A stretch of 64,000 bases of DNA. Origin: an uncultured Bacteroidales bacterium. GTDB lineage: Bacteria; Bacteroidota; Bacteroidia; Bacteroidales; UBA932. The notes under the pieces are model-generated. The model saw nothing but the letters and a program-made list of their open reading frames with translations. It had not been told where the DNA came from and made no database searches. The stretch covers positions 2,115-66,114 of the forward strand of contig CAMKRY010000001.1 in assembly GCA_946415345.1 (NCBI GenBank), in the 5' to 3' direction. How positions within the stretch are numbered: the stretch's first letter is position 1; each line of letters opens with the position of its first letter. The translations under genes were made by a program, and so were the position numbers. Shown here in pieces: positions 4,499-61,066 of the stretch.

Positions 4499-4738
4499 GT
4501 TGCTGCTGCAGTGCAGACTCGGAAGAGCGAAAACGGAGCGGCACCGGGGACTTGACGAGCAACTTCTCCTTTTAGTCCCGCTTTCGCGGGCCTAACGTCG
4601 GCGAACAGTGCTCGTCATGCCGCTACGCGTCACCGCCCCCTGCACGATGCCAACGCGCATTTCCGTTTTCGCTCACGAGCCTGCACCGCAGCAGCAACGG
4701 GCCTCCTCCGTCCCTGCGGCCACCCACTCCCACCCCGT
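4499..4738. mobile_element. nested-hairpin non-autonomous element (MITE/REPIN-like)
   Basis: About 40-bp imperfect terminal IR (4499-4537 / 4662-4698), inner AGCGGCA..TGACGAGCA / TGCTCGTCA.TGCCGCT and CCCGC-TTTC-GCGGG stems; GGCCCGTTG motif shared with the 5.8-kb element. Confidence 0.6.
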
Positions 4739-4823: not shown

Positions 4824-5645
4824 ATGAAACGTGTTTTTCTCTTTGTTTTTATTGCCACATTTTTTGTTCTGGCACTCTTCGGTTGTAACTCCTCAAAGAA
4901 GCGCTCTTCCATGAGAGAGTTTCTTATTGGCACTGAGTGGGTTTATCAATTGGATGCTTCCACCTCAGATCCTCTGACGATTATTCTGTCGTTTTATGAA
5001 GACACTTTTGAATGGAGGAAGGTTGGAGAGAAAGGTTATATTCAGGGAAAGTATGAGATCGACGAAGAGAATCATATTCGTTTCTCTTCGTTAAAATACG
5101 GAAAGGAGTCGCTAGACAACTATATGTCATTATCGGGTTTATTTAAGCCTGAAGATGATGTTATCATGATGAACGGGGACGAGGATGGTGAGACGTATAA
5201 TTCTATCTTTAGAAAAATCAAGTCAAGCGAAGACCTGCAATCTTATACCAAATCAGAATCGAAAAAAGAGGATATCTCTCAAGACGAAAAGGAGAAAGAG
5301 GATTTAAAGTCGATAGATGAGTATATGGAATCTCTGGGCTATTCATTGGTCGGGAAAGCACCTAGTTTGTATTCTTTCGGTTTAGGGGATGTCTATAAAG
5401 ATGAATGTTGGCAATATACGATCGGAAACGACTGGTATGTCTGGGCAAAAGCTTTGGGAGCCGGGAATGGTGCAGTATATGCTGTGACCAACGTGAAACT
5501 TGGATGGAAGATACGCAATTATCGGGAATGTATGTACGCTGTCGCTGCAGTTAATATCTTCGCCAAAGACGAGGATGGGAAGAAGCATCATTTTAATTCC
5601 AAGATTAGTATTTCTTCCAGTTTAACCTTATACTTTGAGTTTTAA
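4824..5645 (+). CDS. low-GC hypothetical lipoprotein
   Basis: Lipobox LFGC; clearly AT-rich codon usage compared with flanking genes. Confidence 0.8.
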   Translation: MKRVFLFVFIATFFVLALFGCNSSKKRSSMREFLIGTEWVYQLDASTSDPLTIILSFYEDTFEWRKVGEKGYIQGKYEIDEENHIRFSSLKYGKESLDNYMSLSGLFKPEDDVIMMNGDEDGETYNSIFRKIKSSEDLQSYTKSESKKEDISQDEKEKEDLKSIDEYMESLGYSLVGKAPSLYSFGLGDVYKDECWQYTIGNDWYVWAKALGAGNGAVYAVTNVKLGWKIRNYRECMYAVAAVNIFAKDEDGKKHHFNSKISISSSLTLYFEF

Positions 5646-5770: not shown

Positions 5771-5986
5771 GTGTCGCTATAGCTCGGAGCGGAGGTCGGC
5801 CGTTGCCATTGAGAGGCGTGTCCACCCCCGGACACGGGCAGGGGGAGGGGCCCGTTGGATACAAGTTATGGGTGGCGGCGGAAACGCCGCGGGCCATGAC
5901 GAAGTAGACAATGGGAGGGGCCGGAGCGGCGCGCAGCGACGCGGAGTCCTCGAAATGGCAATGGCCGACGTAGCGGAGAGCGATGC
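5771..5986. mobile_element. nested-hairpin non-autonomous element
   Basis: IR GTCGGCCGTTGCCATT (5795-5810) / AATGGCAATGGCCGAC (5954-5969); inner CGTGTCC/GGACACG and GCGGCG-GAAA-CGCCGC stems; core shared with 44694 and 60644 elements. Confidence 0.65.
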
Positions 5987-6433: not shown

Positions 6434-7210
6434 ATGGAACCGATACAGAAGATAGCCATCATTGGCGCAGGAAACATGGGCGGTGCGGTGGCGCTGGGAT
6501 TGCGCAGGTTTGCCCCGGATATAGCACTTGCGGTCACGACGGCCCATGCCTCTACGCTGGAGAAATATGCAGCGCTGGGTATGGAAACTACGCTGGACAA
6601 TGCTGTCGCGGCAGAAGGGGCCGATGTCGTTATCCTGGGTGTGAAGCCATGGCTGGTGCAGTCGGTTCTGGAGCAGATCAGGCCCTGCCTTTCCGGGAAA
6701 CTGCTGCTCTCCCTGGCAGCGGGAATTCCGGCGGCTCAGATGCAGGAGTGGCTCGCTGGGACTGGCGTCCGGGCGGCTTATACGGTGATCCCGAATCTCG
6801 CGGCTGAAATAGGGGAGAGCATGACCTTCGCATCGGCTATCCTCGGTGAGGCCGACCAGATGGTCAAGTCCCTATTTGATAAACTCGGCAAGACGCTGAT
6901 TGTGAATGAGAAACGCCTCCAGGCCGGGATGATGGTGGCATCCTGCGGGACAGCGTTCGCGCTCCGTTATGCCCGTGCGGCGATGGAGGGCGGTATCCAA
7001 CTGGGGCTATACCCCAAAGAGGCGATGGAAGCGGTGTACCAGACGATGAAGGGCGCCGTGGACCTGGCGGAGAGCCGGAGTGCCCATCCCGAGGCGGAGA
7101 TTGACCGGGTGACCACCCCCGGCGGTATCACCATCCGCGGCCTCAATGCCATGGAAGATGCCGGGTTTACCGCGGCCGTCATTGCCGGCCTGACTTCATT
7201 CCAGCAGTAG
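6434..7210 (+). CDS. proC: pyrroline-5-carboxylate reductase
   Basis: IIGAGNMG Rossmann motif, GVKP, VTTPGGITIRGL; TATCTTTG promoter at 6401. Confidence 0.93.
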   Translation: MEPIQKIAIIGAGNMGGAVALGLRRFAPDIALAVTTAHASTLEKYAALGMETTLDNAVAAEGADVVILGVKPWLVQSVLEQIRPCLSGKLLLSLAAGIPAAQMQEWLAGTGVRAAYTVIPNLAAEIGESMTFASAILGEADQMVKSLFDKLGKTLIVNEKRLQAGMMVASCGTAFALRYARAAMEGGIQLGLYPKEAMEAVYQTMKGAVDLAESRSAHPEAEIDRVTTPGGITIRGLNAMEDAGFTAAVIAGLTSFQQ

Positions 7211-14173: not shown

Positions 14174-14200
14174 AGATGCCCGATCAGGTCGGGCATGACG
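14174..14200 (-). repeat. REP type B
   Basis: Exact reverse complement of 2603-2629. Confidence 0.85.
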
Positions 14201-15179: not shown

Positions 15180-16469
15180 TCAGTCAAACAGACGGCTGAC
15201 CTGATCGATGATCTGGTCCTCCGGGAGATCGGGGCTGAGGACGAGGTCCGGAACGGCCATGAAATAGCCGCCGGCCTTGGCGCTTTCCTCGCCGCCGCCG
15301 GTGCAGTTGAGCATGACGATCTCGTTTTTCTTGACGCTGCCGTCCTTGACGGCCATGGCAAGGGAGGCCACGGCGCAGGCTGCTGCGGAATAGATGTCGA
15401 TGTGCTCGAGGGCGTTGAATTTGCGCTTCCAGTAGTTGATTTCCTCGTTGGTGACCTTGTACATGTCGCCCTTGGAGTCCTCGAGGGCATCGAACAAACC
15501 GCCCGCAAGACTGTACGGAGGTTTGCGGTTGGACAGCACCTTGGCGTCAATCTCGGCGGCCTTCATGCGGCCTTCCTCGGCGGTCATGGGCACAAGGGCG
15601 CGCTGGTGGGCCTTCCAGCTGTCGTACATCAGCGAGAAGGGGGCGTTCTGGGCGGCATAGAGGCGGGTCTTCTTGCGGCCGAAGCGGCCGTCGTCAATGA
15701 GGCGGAGGTTGTTCTCCCAGACGGCGATGGTGCCGGTGCCGGAGCCGACGGCCTGGAAATAGGCGTCGGGCAGCTCGCCGATGGCCTCGACGGCGCTCAG
15801 GAGGGTCGTTCCCATGCCATCGCGGCGGGCGACATTCTTGGCACCGCCCTCGGCGAGGAAGCGTTCGCTGCGGCAGAGCTTGTCTCCGAGCTGGATGGCG
15901 TCGAAATAGTCCGATCCACGGGGGCTGGAAATGATCTTGACGCAGGGACGGAGGCGCTTGTGGAACCACAGGGCGTCGATATTGTCGCGGGGGATGCAGA
16001 TGACGATAGGGATGTTGTTGTCCGAGCAGACCTGCGCGAAGGCGCGGGCAGTGTTGCCGGCACTCTGGACGACGAGGATCTTGTCGGTCTTTTTCGGCAG
16101 GCGGGCGCAGACGGAATAGGCTTCCGTGGCCTTGAACGAGCAGGTGGCGACTTCGGCGCCGATTTCAGGGGCGTAGCCGGTGAAGGTGATGTAGAGATTC
16201 TTCAGGCCGAGTTCCCGGGCGAGTCCCTTGCTCCGGTAGGTGACGGGACCCTGGGCATTCTTCAGGATGCGGCGGATCGGCAGCCAGGAGGCGTAGCGGT
16301 AGATGCCTTCCAGGTCTTCCCTGGGGGTGAAGAGCTTTTCATTGTAGACGGCCCTGACAAGGGAAGGGGAGGCGGATTCGGGATCCACGAGGGTCCAGCC
16401 TTTGTCCTTGAAGACGCGGCCGTCGGCCACGTTCATCAGTTCGTACTGAGTGGGGGTAAATCTGGGCAT
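15180..16469 (-). CDS. cysteate synthase (threonine synthase-like PLP enzyme)
   Basis: TCSFK PLP lysine, SAGNTARAF, NVARRDGMGT, FQAVGSGTG, VLSNRKPPY, LNCTGGG. Confidence 0.8.
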   Translation of the reverse strand: MPRFTPTQYELMNVADGRVFKDKGWTLVDPESASPSLVRAVYNEKLFTPREDLEGIYRYASWLPIRRILKNAQGPVTYRSKGLARELGLKNLYITFTGYAPEIGAEVATCSFKATEAYSVCARLPKKTDKILVVQSAGNTARAFAQVCSDNNIPIVICIPRDNIDALWFHKRLRPCVKIISSPRGSDYFDAIQLGDKLCRSERFLAEGGAKNVARRDGMGTTLLSAVEAIGELPDAYFQAVGSGTGTIAVWENNLRLIDDGRFGRKKTRLYAAQNAPFSLMYDSWKAHQRALVPMTAEEGRMKAAEIDAKVLSNRKPPYSLAGGLFDALEDSKGDMYKVTNEEINYWKRKFNALEHIDIYSAAACAVASLAMAVKDGSVKKNEIVMLNCTGGGEESAKAGGYFMAVPDLVLSPDLPEDQIIDQVSRLFD

Positions 16470-16475
16470 ATTCTC

Positions 16476-17435
16476 TTATAAATTATATATCAACCAGGAC
16501 ATGTAGCCGAGCCAGGTCAGCAGGAGCAGGGCTCCGTCGAAGCGGTCCAGCTTGTTGTTGCGGCCGGTCCAGGAAGCGGTCGCCAGCAGGATGCCGGCTA
16601 CCAGCAGCACCACCGCGTCGGCCCGGTCCATGCCGTTGAAAGACAACGGGGTCAGGAGGCCGGAAATGCCGAGGATCAGCAGGAGATTGAAAATGTTCGA
16701 GCCGATGATGTTGCCAAGGGCGAGCTGCCCCTTCTTTTTCGCGGCAGCGACTATGCAGGTAGCGAGTTCGGGCAGGGACGTGCCGATGGCGAGGACCGTA
16801 ATGGCGATGAATTTGTCGGAGGCACCGAGCATCCGGGCCAGGTGCGTGGCGCTGTTGACGAAGAGACGTCCGCCGAAGATCAGCGCCAGCAGGCCGAGGA
16901 GAATCATCAGCAGGGACAGCCACAGGGGGCTGATCTTGCCGGTCTCCTCATCCTCGGACGTCTTTCCGCTGCGGAGCATCCACCAGATGTAACCGGCGAA
17001 GGCTACGAGGAGGATCCCCGCGTCCAGGCGGCTGAGCGTATTGTCGCCGAAACCCAGCAGGGCGCCGGTCATGCCGAGCCCGAAGACCAGGACCGTGACG
17101 CCAAGGTGCATCGGGATGTCGATGCGGCGGTTGCTGCGGGTGATCAGCATCGGGAAGATCAAGGCCGTGATGCCGAGCCCGAAGAGGGTGTTGATGATGT
17201 TGGAACCCACGACGTTGCCGACGGCGATGTCTGCGTTGCCTTCCACGGCGCCGACCAGGCTGACCACCAGCTCCGGCGCGGATGTGCCGATGCCGACGAT
17301 CGTCATGCCGATGACGAATTCGCTGATGCGGAAGCGTCGGGCGATGCTCGAAGCACCGTCGACAAGCTTGTCCGCGCCGATTACGATCAGCGCCAGACCC
17401 AGCAGCAGAAGCAGTATGACCTGTGCGGTTTCCAT
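16476..17435 (-). CDS. calcium/sodium antiporter (YrbG/CaCA family)
   Basis: Two alpha repeats GTSAPE..GNVVGSN and GTSLPE..GNIIGSN. Confidence 0.92.
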   Translation of the reverse strand: METAQVILLLLLGLALIVIGADKLVDGASSIARRFRISEFVIGMTIVGIGTSAPELVVSLVGAVEGNADIAVGNVVGSNIINTLFGLGITALIFPMLITRSNRRIDIPMHLGVTVLVFGLGMTGALLGFGDNTLSRLDAGILLVAFAGYIWWMLRSGKTSEDEETGKISPLWLSLLMILLGLLALIFGGRLFVNSATHLARMLGASDKFIAITVLAIGTSLPELATCIVAAAKKKGQLALGNIIGSNIFNLLLILGISGLLTPLSFNGMDRADAVVLLVAGILLATASWTGRNNKLDRFDGALLLLTWLGYMSWLIYNL

Positions 17436-42998: not shown

Positions 42999-43910
42999 AT
43001 GAAACGATACTTTCTTCTTCCCCTCCTCTTCTGTCTGGCTCTTCCGGCCCGTGCCCAGTCTGACAGTCCGGCTCTTCCGGCCCGTGCCCAGTCTGACAGT
43101 CCGGCTCTTCCGGCAGGCCTGCAGATCGATACGGTCCAGGTCGTCAAGCGCGACTTTGTCGTCAACGACTATTCCACCATCGGCGCCGAGGGCGGTCTCG
43201 TGCTCAGCAACATCCTTTTCAATCCGCCGAAGGATACGAAGTTCTTCCTGAACGGTCCTGCGTTCAACCTCCTGTTCACGCACTACTCCAAGCTCTTCGG
43301 ATATATGCCGTATTTCGGTTTCCAGATCGGGTTTGCGTATACCAACGGCGGCTACTGGTTCAAGACCGACAAGGAAACGAAGGTCACGCCTTCCCTGGAC
43401 GGATACCGCGGAGCGACCTGGAAAGTGGCCGAAATGCCCTTCCTGATGATGTTCCGCGTGGATGCACCGCATTTCCGCGTGATGGCCAAAGCCGGTATCT
43501 ACGCCGGCTATCGCTGGGATATTCACCGGACCGTTCATGAGAACTATGCCGATTACGAGGGGGTGGTCATCACCGGCTTCAATGTCCATGACTATACGGA
43601 CAAGTGGCGCGACATCGACAACCGCTACGACTATGGTCTCGAGGGCGGCCTCGGCGTCGCCTTCGTCTTTGATCCCTTCGAGTTCCACGTCAACGCCCTG
43701 CTCAAATACGGCTGGTCTTCGCTCTATCAGCCGGATTACGCGAGTCCATATTATTACCGTTTCGCCTATCCGTTCGACGTGATGATTACGGCCGGCATCC
43801 ACTTCCAACTGAGCCGCCGCACCGGCAAGAGCAAGGCCCAGCTGCGCCGCGAGGCCTATGACGCCGTGTATAACCCTTCCGTGAATGAGGAAATAGTACC
43901 CGTCCAGTAA
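42999..43910 (+). CDS. outer-membrane beta-barrel protein
   Basis: Signal peptide, amphipathic strands, DYGLEGGLG. Confidence 0.75.
   Translation: MKRYFLLPLLFCLALPARAQSDSPALPARAQSDSPALPAGLQIDTVQVVKRDFVVNDYSTIGAEGGLVLSNILFNPPKDTKFFLNGPAFNLLFTHYSKLFGYMPYFGFQIGFAYTNGGYWFKTDKETKVTPSLDGYRGATWKVAEMPFLMMFRVDAPHFRVMAKAGIYAGYRWDIHRTVHENYADYEGVVITGFNVHDYTDKWRDIDNRYDYGLEGGLGVAFVFDPFEFHVNALLKYGWSSLYQPDYASPYYYRFAYPFDVMITAGIHFQLSRRTGKSKAQLRREAYDAVYNPSVNEEIVPVQ
43037..43114 (+). repeat. perfect 33-bp tandem duplication (about 2.4 copies)
   Basis: GGCTCTTCCGGCCCGTGCCCAGTCTGACAGTCC x2 plus GGCTCTTCCGGC. Confidence 0.95.
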
Positions 43911-43911
43911 G

Positions 43912-45272
<1,361 letters not shown>

Positions 45273-45276
<4 letters not shown>

Positions 45277-47025: not shown

Positions 47026-47595
47026 ATGAAAAAATTCTTTATGATGCTCGCCGTTGCGGCGATGATGGTATTTGCCGTTTCCTGCGGCAATGACAAGAAA
47101 AAAGATGCCAAGGGTGAGGCTGCGACTGAGACGGTTGATTACGCCAAGATGGCTCCCGCCGATCTCGCCCAGGCCCTCCTCAAAGCTGCCAAGAGCGACG
47201 ATCTTGCTGCCTTTAAGGCTATTTTCGAGGTGATGGATACTCTCGATGATGAGGATGCCGAAGCGGCTATGGCCGCCCTCTCCGAGTCCGACCAGATGAC
47301 CATTGCTTTCTATGCCATGGCCCACATGGAGGAAATCACCGGTGAGAAGCTCGACTTTGACGATGAGGACTATGCCTTGGAAGAAGGCGATGACTACGAT
47401 CTCGACTATGATGATTCCGACATCCGCGCTCTTTACGATGATGCCAATAATCAGGTCGAGGATGCCTACAAGGACGCCTACAAGCAGGTCGAGGATTCCT
47501 ACGGCGATGCCATGAATGAGATTAAGGACGCCTATGACGATGCACTGAAAGATCTTCAGGATTCTTATGAGGATGCCCTGAACGATCTGTTCTAG
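47026..47595 (+). CDS. acidic lipoprotein with 11-residue repeats
   Basis: Lipobox AVSC; C-terminal DA..Q/E-hydrophobic-.D.Y. repeats. Confidence 0.8.
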   Translation: MKKFFMMLAVAAMMVFAVSCGNDKKKDAKGEAATETVDYAKMAPADLAQALLKAAKSDDLAAFKAIFEVMDTLDDEDAEAAMAALSESDQMTIAFYAMAHMEEITGEKLDFDDEDYALEEGDDYDLDYDDSDIRALYDDANNQVEDAYKDAYKQVEDSYGDAMNEIKDAYDDALKDLQDSYEDALNDLF

Positions 47596-59755: not shown

Positions 59756-61066
59756 TTAGTTAAACGTGAAGCGCACGCCGAAGAAGAACTCCGGCGCAAA
59801 CGGATGCTCGGAATACGCGTTTTCCAGTTCACTGCCGTTCGGAATATGCCAGCTGAAAGCCGGCTGGAGGAAGAAACTGAATCCCGGCAGCAGGTCCAGC
59901 TGCGCACCGGCACCGGCCTGCAGCGACCAGCGGTTGTCCTTGATGCGGGTCCGGTCGGTCTGATAGTCCCGGTTGTCACCGAGCGTCTGAAGCGTTGTCG
60001 TCCGTGTCCGGTAGGCGGTCTCGAACATGGGACCGGCCAATCCGTACAGGCTGAATCCCTTATGCCACCAGATCTTGTACTGTGCGTGCAGCGGGAAGCC
60101 GATATAATGCATGTCCCTTTCCGTCGTCGACTTCGCCAGGCCGCTTTCGCTGGCATAACTGGACTTCAGCTTTGTGAAGTAAAGACCACTCTCCATGCTC
60201 CAGCGACGGCCGATCGAAGCGCCGAAGGTAATGCCGAATCGCGAGGATCTTTGATGGACCGCATCGGTTACGCTCGGTTTGTTCCGGCTCAGCATCATCG
60301 GGTTGAGTCCCGCCGTCGTCCCAGCCGCCCGCATCATCGGCATGCCCGGATACGTCACCGGCAGGCCATATCCCGTCATCGTCCGCGACACATCCTGCGC
60401 CAGATACTGGCCCGTCGCCACCCCCGCCTTCAACTTCACCTCCGTCGGCTTCCGTACCTTATTATTCTTATTGCCTGTCACGGTCTCCTCCTTCCAGAAA
60501 TCGCTCTCATCTACCTTCTGCTCTTCTTTCTGTTCATTTCTCTCCTCCTCTTCCTTTTTTCCTTCTTCTGCTACGGTATTTTTATCAATAATAATATCAT
60601 TGTTGTCAATCTCACTACCGGTGAGCGATGAATCGGGAGTTGGCGATGAACCATCAGCAGGCGTGTCCACCCCCGGAGAAACACCCCAAGAATCGGAGAT
60701 TCTCGGGGGCCCCGTTATGCCAACCCTTCGGTCGTCGGGTTGAGTGAGCGAAGCGAGCGAATCCTGCTGATGGTTTATCGGCAGTTCCTCTTCGCTCTCC
60801 GGATTGTCGTGGACGTCGACAACTGCCAGAGATTTCTCAACTTCACTCGAAATGACAGTGTGGTCCTTGCGGAAAAGGAACACGCCGACGGCGACGCAGG
60901 CCGCGGCGGCAAGGGCGGCTGCCCCGTACCACCACCACGCTGCGGCGGCTTTCCTGCGTTTGGGTACCATGGCCCCCTGGACTGCGTCCCACAGTCCTTC
61001 GGGTTCCGCTTCGGTGTAGCCCTCGAAGAGCTCCGGAAGCTGGTCTGTCCAATTGTTTTTACTCAT
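59756..61066 (-). CDS. putative dual-membrane-spanning anti-sigma factor
   Basis: Short N-terminal domain (EPEGLWDAV), TM helix, long low-complexity linker, C-terminal beta-barrel ending GVRFTFN; overlaps the ECF sigma stop. Confidence 0.72.
   Translation of the reverse strand: MSKNNWTDQLPELFEGYTEAEPEGLWDAVQGAMVPKRRKAAAAWWWYGAAALAAAACVAVGVFLFRKDHTVISSEVEKSLAVVDVHDNPESEEELPINHQQDSLASLTQPDDRRVGITGPPRISDSWGVSPGVDTPADGSSPTPDSSLTGSEIDNNDIIIDKNTVAEEGKKEEEERNEQKEEQKVDESDFWKEETVTGNKNNKVRKPTEVKLKAGVATGQYLAQDVSRTMTGYGLPVTYPGMPMMRAAGTTAGLNPMMLSRNKPSVTDAVHQRSSRFGITFGASIGRRWSMESGLYFTKLKSSYASESGLAKSTTERDMHYIGFPLHAQYKIWWHKGFSLYGLAGPMFETAYRTRTTTLQTLGDNRDYQTDRTRIKDNRWSLQAGAGAQLDLLPGFSFFLQPAFSWHIPNGSELENAYSEHPFAPEFFFGVRFTFN
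60644..60780. mobile_element. ~137-bp nested hairpin element in frame in the anti-sigma linker
   Basis: IR CGATGAACCATCAGCAGG / CCTGCTGATGGTTTATCG; AGGCGTGTCCACCCCCGGA identical to 5814-5832. Confidence 0.75.
60830..60857 (-). repeat. REP type A in frame in the anti-sigma gene
   Basis: Minus strand TGTCATTTCGAGTGAAGTTGAGAAATCT, 23/28 to 2570-2597; encodes VISSEVEKS. Confidence 0.72.

Follow-up and report, generated by a model that had tools for sequence, protein, structure and literature searches.

Candidate mobile hairpin elements with a conserved folded core and variable paired arms in one family of Bacteroidales

The 64,000-nt stretch of DNA analysed here (the window), from an uncultured Bacteroidales bacterium, contains three members of a repeat family that we interpret, with a probability of roughly 0.6, as lineage-restricted, non-autonomous mobile hairpin elements of ~150 to 215 bp, in which arms of 16 to 49 bp directly close a folded core of 105 to 135 nt and fixed polarity. 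The elements insert without target duplication, both between genes and in frame within genes. They are best described as REP/REPIN-like hairpins with an inverted logic, the structured centre being conserved and the ends being free but paired. The window corresponds to positions 2115 to 66114 of contig C1 in a 1.34-Mb genome bin (56% complete, 58.7% G+C), denoted G000; C-numbers alone refer to contigs of this bin, other G-numbers to relatives, and P-numbers to protein alleles.

Copy 1 (5795-5969, + strand) is a full-length type I element located between ORF 4824-5645 and the proC-like ORF 6434-7210, and it scores 126.5 bits with covariance model R1. Its left arm GTCGGCCGTTGCCATT (5795-5810, + strand) and right arm AATGGCAATGGCCGAC (5954-5969, + strand) match at 15 of 16 positions, the remaining one being a G.T mismatch, and the DNA has a predicted folding energy of -52.8 kcal/mol (z = -5.7). 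Between the arms lie the motifs AGGCGTGTCCACCCCCGGA at 5814, GGGGCCCGTT at 5847, ATGGGAGGGGCCG at 5911, and GCGCAGCGACGCGGAGTCCT ending at 5950. The 3' module (5911-5950, + strand) is composed, in alignments A1 and A4, of ATGGGAGGGGCCGGAG, a variable hairpin with a GNA or GNRA cap, and CGGAGTCCT. Copy 2 (60636-60788, + strand; arms 60636-60661 and 60763-60788; R1 score 40.8 bits) has a type II core, which shares its first 19 nt with copy 1 (AGGCGTGTCCACCCCCGGA at 60659) and contains GCGAAGCG with an AATCCT end. Its arms match at 17 of 18 positions (60645-60662 and 60763-60780), again with a G.T mismatch, and at 85% when extended to 26 nt. This copy is read in frame, in reverse orientation, within an anti-sigma-like/outer-membrane beta-barrel gene (59756-61066, - strand; precomputed Pfam matches PF13505 and PF13568). 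Copy 3 (44691-44789, - strand) is an inverted, internally deleted type I element that retains the 3' module and the inner arm and occupies, in frame, the interdomain linker of ispG (43912-45276, + strand). It carries ATGGGAGGGGCCG reverse-complemented at ~44752, lacks the 5' motif, and has arms (44691-44712 and 44768-44789) matched at 21 of 22 positions.

A preliminary description of this DNA had reported shared core motifs in these three stretches, a long inverted repeat closing each of them, and mini-hairpin loops of the GCGAAGC type. The motifs were located as claimed, with GCG(N)AGCG...GA(G/A)TCCT in all three copies, the inverted repeats are far above chance, and the loops are present; copy 3, a deleted derivative, is without the 5' motif. 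Two other long inverted repeats in the window, at 4499-4698 (23 nt at 91%, 154-nt centre) and 2632-2726 (32 nt at 81%), gave no covariance-model match. The window also contains 33-bp tandem repeats at 43033-43114 and 47434-47532, of which the former is situated at the 5' end of ORF 42999-43910 and encodes repeats of the peptide ALPARAQSDSP after a signal-like start.

Covariation supports a conserved predicted fold of the core, which consists of a hairpin-pseudoknot, a wobble helix, and a REP-like GACG hairpin. In copy 1, the P1 hairpin pairs CGTGTCC with GGACACG over 7 bp, and its loop CCCCC (5825-5829) pairs with GGGGG (5841-5845) to form the pseudoknot, the whole spanning 5817-5845 on the + strand; the GGGGG lies 4 to 5 bases downstream. 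The variable pair of the pseudoknot is CG in 24, GC in 8, UA in 5, and AU in 2 copies of alignment A4 and is unpaired in none, a covariation that argues for Watson-Crick pairing of the GGGGG and against a G-quadruplex. Helix P3 (5851-5915, + strand), formed by CCCGTTG (5851-5857) and CAATGGG (5909-5915), encloses a REP-like module (5868-5901) in which a variable-stem hairpin is followed by the nearly invariant GACG tag. P3 holds a conserved G.T/U wobble (38/45 copies in A1 and 35/40 in A4) and shows compensatory changes in 3 to 5 pairs. The second variable hairpin of the core is often capped by GCGAAGC or GNRA, and G.A mismatches or tandem G.A pairs occur as well. Across A1 (45 copies) and A4 (an alignment of 40 copies of other genera to a model without the pseudoknot), 95 to 96% of the cells in the predicted structure are paired, a value equalled by none of 500 shuffles and falling sharply when the partners are slid, although the copies are kin rather than independent, so that the covariation and all statistics given here overstate the support.

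Selection appears to act on a single strand of fixed polarity, as suggested by the conserved wobble in P3, by the excess of G.T over A.C among arm mismatches on the forward strand (71 versus 25, p = 3e-6), and by a predicted fold of the forward strand that is ~10 kcal/mol more stable than that of the reverse strand. Since copies occur in both orientations, within genes (10 forward and 11 reverse) as well as between them, we lean towards ssDNA rather than RNA as the selected form, two possibilities that the data do not separate. The ssDNA intermediate proposed in the preliminary description thus finds backing for its single-stranded nature, with the preference for DNA being a leaning. In G000, all seven matches to the 5' motif, spread over six different contigs, lie on the + strand, and in 11 of 15 copies the forward strand is the G-rich strand of the contig, a difference that is not significant; a replication-strand bias, if real, would fit an ssDNA mechanism.

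Among the genomes sampled, the element family is limited to one family of Bacteroidales. The core occurs eight times in the G000 bin (the three window copies and one copy each on C36, C75, C4, C40, and C19). Of 81 sampled genomes of the same genus, 43 contained it by BLAST. Within the same family, a covariance model built from 45 copies detected the core in 37 of 151 genomes, distributed over 10 of 37 genera, with single genomes reaching 20 or more copies; under strict filters, the model detected it in none of 148 other families of the order, each represented by one genome. At the Rfam gathering threshold, the window yielded a tRNA as its only match, and a literature search, which was not exhaustive, retrieved no published description of the element.

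About a third of the copies (21/65), and 9 of 16 in G000, are contained in long open frames. The host genes in G000 are ispG, mnmA (two copies), dnaX, two anti-sigma-like genes, and rsmA-like, folC-like, and Fe-S-like genes; the C4 copy lies in the dnaX linker, the C40 copy in the second anti-sigma-like gene, and the C19 copy in mnmA. The MnmA protein of G000 (C19:11590-13413) has 608 residues, versus open frames of ~430 to 540 residues in relatives, and the insert is absent from all 37 relatives with a match. Two large elements together with small REP copies are read through in this one gene. Stop codons are slightly depleted in the elements, with 2.8 versus 2.1 of six frames open, and strong stop-codon depletion was accordingly dropped as a feature of the family. 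Intergenic copies are found in either orientation and are enriched in gaps between convergent genes (17/37), and no clear strand rule links element orientation to the flanking genes across these 37 gaps. Many intergenic copies (L014, L022, L024, L026 to L028, and L030 to L032) have beside them a conserved hairpin that resembles a terminator, AAAAAGAGGNTGACT...AGTCANCCTCTTTTT, and whose GACT/AGTC core is conserved.

A related, shorter family, type III, contributes eight further copies in G000, whose first hairpin and pseudoknot are the same (CGTGGCC A CCCTC GGCCACG TAA GAGGG). In its arms, the outer (GCGGAGGAAG) and inner (CAAAACC) parts are conserved and the middle is variable. The copies are situated at C2:45438-45568, C9:~16015-16135, C21:15992-16102, C27:~16545-16665, C27:~1780-1905, C30:1729-1839, C33:9616-9724, and C19:11827-11937, and four of them are in frame, namely in the folC-like, rsmA-like, and Fe-S-like genes and, as the second insert there, in mnmA.

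The arms were compared among ~65 copies from the genus and 33 to 40 from other genera, each with its flanks. An inverted repeat of 16 to 49 nt, starting ~1 base from the core, is present in every collected copy. As the preliminary description had supposed, conservation is higher in the core than in the arms: identity between copies is 0.73 to 0.77 for the core ends versus 0.56 for the arms. The two arms within one copy are nevertheless 92% complementary. Its further claim, that each locus has arms of its own, did not survive the wider comparison. The arms of copy 1 recur unchanged at C36:487-596 and C75:2506-2681 (three loci in all; the C75 copy is 95% identical to copy 1), identical arms are found at 10 or more loci in G042, arms are common to several copies in G076, and the arm type GG(A/G)TAGTGATTGCGGAGG occurs at no fewer than five loci in several genera. 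The arms are therefore grouped in subfamilies that are independent of locus, an outcome that the preliminary description had itself named as refuting its view; they travel with the element and are not copies of flanking DNA made at each insertion. The subfamilies diverge fast, both arms changing together, and this paired divergence gives the look of locus-specific arms when three copies only are compared. At the DNA level, the variants TATGG, TAGTG, and TAGGG of related copies are each present in both arms. Because the two arms of a copy evolve together, their complementarity remains at ~92% despite the strong difference in arms between subfamilies.

Arms and cores are combined in more than one way. 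The arm type of copy 1 encloses a type I core on C1 and C75 and a type II core on C36, and the arms of the mnmA copy on C19, outer part included, recur on C21 around a different core. The C4 and C40 copies share the inner arm, and their outer ~20 nt are unique yet still form inverted repeats. Exact flanking direct repeats of k = 2, 3, 4, 5, and 6 were found for 7, 1, 0, 1, and 0 of 96 copies, respectively, which is the chance level; for k of 4 or more this amounts to the single match at k = 5 (0 of 96 in our summary count). The lack of target duplications, by which the preliminary description had set the element apart from ordinary MITEs, is thus upheld.

Orthologous, 84 to 94% identical alleles of ispG are polymorphic for the presence of the element, which occupies one site in G000, P0001, and P0002; P0004, P0006, P0009, P0010, P0012, and P0013 are empty (example CDRYSGASLPGLSGQYVYAAKSRE). 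IspG of the sampled species genomes is at most 77% identical. P0001 carries a full type I element in forward orientation, and in P0002 the same arms surround a type II core; the G000 form, with the 3' module and inner arm in opposite orientation, corresponds to an inversion combined with a deletion. The R-Y-S codons, which are native to ispG (E/D-R-Y-S, in every empty allele), fall within the left arm, and the right arm holds their inverted copy. Between P0002 and G000, the left-arm changes E->D and K->Q are matched by the right-arm changes A->G and C->G, arm changes that were deduced, here and in the anti-sigma-like alleles, from the protein sequences. These alleles leave room for occasional outward fold-back copying into host DNA. 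Homology-guided insertion is an alternative for the ispG overlap, and an origin from a GGTACC palindrome with a 4-bp palindromic duplication was also considered. If the empty alleles read GCGGTACAGC at R-Y-S, without a sequence like GCTGTACCGC downstream, the right outer arm would have been copied from the host; otherwise, the overlap would reflect homology-guided insertion. In P0003, P0005, and P0008, the same linker holds a different insert of ~40 residues, NLRSEGFDETNLV...ARGPVRTARSSHPSDTPV (alignment A2, columns 296-345), suggesting that the linker is a recurrent landing site.

In the anti-sigma-like gene, the core between the same arms is of type II in G000 and of type I in P0125 to P0128 and P0130, and P0129 shows two paired arm changes. 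Homologues at 58 to 60% identity lack both the element and the arms, and the 18-nt arms have no counterpart in them. The expectation that one arm represents the empty-site sequence thus fits the native R-Y-S codons in the left arm at ispG and finds no match in the anti-sigma-like gene. Alleles of the C40 family with identical flanks (94/94 and 230/230 residues) contain the element in forward orientation in P0216 and in reverse orientation in P0201 and P0207; both forms are open, and they also differ by small arm indels. P0216 corresponds to G165 at the DNA level, and the opposite orientations of G165 and G000 are seen in DNA, the orientation differences being between assemblies of different samples. 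At a fixed site, comparison of the alleles indicates that the core can invert, be partly deleted, or exchange its type, and the exchange is compatible both with gene conversion among copies and with cores that use hairpin loops as targets.

Several other readings have to be weighed against that of mobile hairpin elements. The core might be a dispersed functional structured RNA (a cis-regulatory element, small RNA, or ribozyme) with arms serving stability or processing, in line with the covarying helices and pseudoknot, the G.U wobble, the GNRA loops and tandem G.A pairs, an RNA fold at z = -8.5, and the frequency of intergenic copies between convergent genes. We regard this as quite unlikely, given that four element loci had no relevant match in Rfam at E<=1, that the orientation flips at a fixed site, that loops of the GCGAAGC type favour DNA, and that the occurrence of both orientations, in open frames and between genes, implies that many copies lack sense transcription unless they have a promoter of their own. 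A self-cleaving ribozyme was also judged unlikely, forward copies not being avoided within genes. In another reading, each insertion, or fold-back copying immediately after it, builds the arms de novo from flanking host DNA. The native E/D-R-Y-S codons with their inverted copy in ispG, the D in P0002 with its matching change in the other arm, and the unique but still paired outer arms of the C4 and C40 copies speak for such a process. As a general rule it is already refuted by the same arms at many unrelated loci (at least 10 in G042, several in G076, and three in G000) and across genera, and we give it very little weight: the mnmA arms recur on C21 including their outer part, the anti-sigma arms are missing from element-free homologues, and the dnaX outer arms lie in Ala-rich low-complexity sequence, in which chance inverted repeats are likely. 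The mechanism put forward in the preliminary description, that insertion itself creates an inverted copy of the flanking DNA, falls with this rule, whereas later fold-back copying, its second suggestion, is retained in part, being compatible with the ispG overlap and with arms that covary at orthologous sites, though not as a general rule.

The swaps between arms and cores would also be explained if the cores were the mobile unit and inserted into the loops of pre-existing palindromes, the arms being the target. The same arms with different cores (C1/C75 versus C36, and C19 versus C21), the corresponding pairs of alleles (P0001 versus P0002 for ispG, and G000 versus P0127 for the anti-sigma-like gene), the occurrence of one core with many arms, and the precedent of REPs within long palindromes (PMC3733652) are what one would expect of loop targeting, which we still consider unlikely. 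For none of the G000 arm types was a hairpin consisting of arms alone found, the empty ispG alleles are without any arms, the junction of arm and core is constant in position, with a gap of 1 nt, the inner arm bases extend the closing helix of the core, and gene conversion via the shared 5' and 3' modules accounts for the core swaps equally well. It is similarly conceivable that flipping is programmed and the element acts as an invertible cassette, or portable intragenic inverton, that switches linker peptides of envelope and other proteins. Opposite orientations that are both open between perfectly identical flanks (94/94 and 230/230 residues), the reversal of G165 relative to G000 at the DNA level and of ispG in G000 relative to P0001, and the occurrence of intragenic invertons in Bacteroides, as outlined in PMC10028968, agree with this idea. 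It is nonetheless highly doubtful: the arms do not form a conserved recombinase site, alleles of opposite orientation differ also by arm indels and are compatible with replacement by another copy, open frames are barely enriched (2.8 versus 2.1 of 6), and most copies are intergenic.

The autonomous partner gene anticipated in the preliminary description was not found, and no intermediate of excision or of transposition was observed. Y1_Tnp (Pfam) genes were rejected as candidates, as they show no linkage to the copies, occur also in element-free genomes, and offer no contrast between presence and absence. In G000, the three Y1_Tnp-like genes (~300 aa; C9:7278, C4:17523, and C8:33189) are 9 to 17 kb from the nearest copies on their contigs; among 12 Y1_Tnp-like loci, one (G571:C23) has an adjacent full copy and one a partial match ~570 bp away, and G032 and G041, with 6 to 9 copies, have no Y1-like gene at E<=0.001. 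The G571 locus (C23:1687-2938; L199/L205) encodes the sole Y1_Tnp-like match of a genome with at least 20 copies, a 318-aa ORF with a weak score of 22 bits, and the full element lies 148 bp past its 3' end, a proximity that may be due to chance in this copy-dense region. The ~4.2-kb spacing of copies on G571:C23 resembled a cassette array, an interpretation that was rejected, the copies there being ordinary intergenic inserts. A small CGTC-tagged REP, AGATGCCCGATCAGGTCGGGCATGACG, is widespread in the G000 genome (e.g., at window positions 14175-14200, C1:16289) and has the same design as the variable hairpin and GACG of the core. The genome contains 37 perfect 7-bp-stem hairpins followed by GACG, versus 4 to 11 for control tags. 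Small REPs are often directly beside large elements (C19, C21, C36, and C75).

The closest known relatives of the element are REP/REPIN sequences and the Rickettsia palindromic elements (RPEs). Like REPs and REPINs, which are associated with RAYTs (Y1 HUH proteins) and tagged by CGTC/GTAG, the element is a non-autonomous, GC-rich hairpin repeat without target duplication, implies a single-stranded form, keeps its hairpin by compensatory changes, as REPIN hairpins do (Bertels and Rainey 2011, PMC3116915), and has intragenic, in-frame copies; it also clusters with small REPs and contains in its core a tagged hairpin with a variable stem (GACG = CGTC). The tag next to a palindrome, which is conserved in REPs, is found for the internal module only. 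REPINs have conserved, recognised inverted REP ends and a variable spacer, whereas the element has variable ends, which are its least conserved part (0.56), around a conserved pseudoknotted centre of 105 to 135 nt. A RAYT is a cognate gene flanked by its repeat, but only 1 of the 12 Y1-like loci has a full copy alongside. Some REP dimers are enclosed in long palindromes whose empty form was not found (Di Nocera et al. 2013, PMC3733652). RPEs resemble the element as palindromes of ~100 to 150 bp that are read through as loops or linkers of housekeeping genes, in agreement with the 21 of 65 copies in long open frames; the likeness is one of description, and the host lineage differs. A covarying pseudoknot core and reversals of orientation at a single site are, to our knowledge, not reported for RPEs. 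The modular repeats of enterobacteria (ERIC) and streptococci (BOX) and classical MITEs of the Correia type share with the element their size, terminal inverted repeats, mosaic or modular interior, and subfamilies. Classical MITEs have IS-derived conserved terminal repeats and target duplications, neither of which the element has, its arms being conserved within subfamilies only; no autonomous element with matching ends was seen in the loci examined. The intragenic invertons of Bacteroides (Chanin et al., PMC10028968), as outlined there, are likewise coding segments flanked by inverted repeats that keep the frame in both orientations. For the element, both orientations were observed between alleles or strains (P0216/G165 versus P0201/P0207, and G000 versus P0001 for ispG), and the invertible segment is itself a dispersed repeat.

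We propose that the mobile hairpin element would move as a folded single strand, like REP/REPIN and IS200/IS605-type HUH systems, and that the machinery may recognise the conserved core rather than the arm sequence, with the arms probably needing pairing only. Their matching could be maintained by selection for the hairpin, by hairpin-templated correction of the quasipalindrome type, or by both. In quasipalindrome template switching, as outlined in PMC7202029, one arm is copied from the other and imperfect inverted repeats are perfected, which would explain both the concerted change of the arms and their outward spread; it is a mutational process, not an element family, and its action here is conjectural. 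At times, such correction may extend beyond the element into host DNA, as in ispG. A speculative and rather unlikely extension of this scheme is that the pseudoknotted single-strand module serves as the handle by which a novel type of hairpin transposon is recognised, that the drifting arms are kept matched by hairpin-templated copying able to overwrite neighbouring host codons, as in ispG, and that flips and swaps in place turn the element into a mobile, self-maintaining intragenic inverton. If true, one insertion would give essential and envelope proteins a choice of in-frame linker peptides.

REPs, REPINs, and RPEs are usually defined by conserved ends. In the present family, an internal covarying pseudoknot fold and a strand-specific wobble appear to be conserved instead, and the ends would need pairing only. 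We know of no enzyme that moves such elements in Bacteroidales, and the core offers a concrete, testable substrate for one. The alleles suggest that palindrome arms evolve in concert at fixed loci and that essential genes such as ispG, mnmA, and dnaX tolerate inserts whose orientation, length, and core type differ between near-identical strains. For annotators, this means that linker regions of the ispG, mnmA, and dnaX products are repeat-derived.
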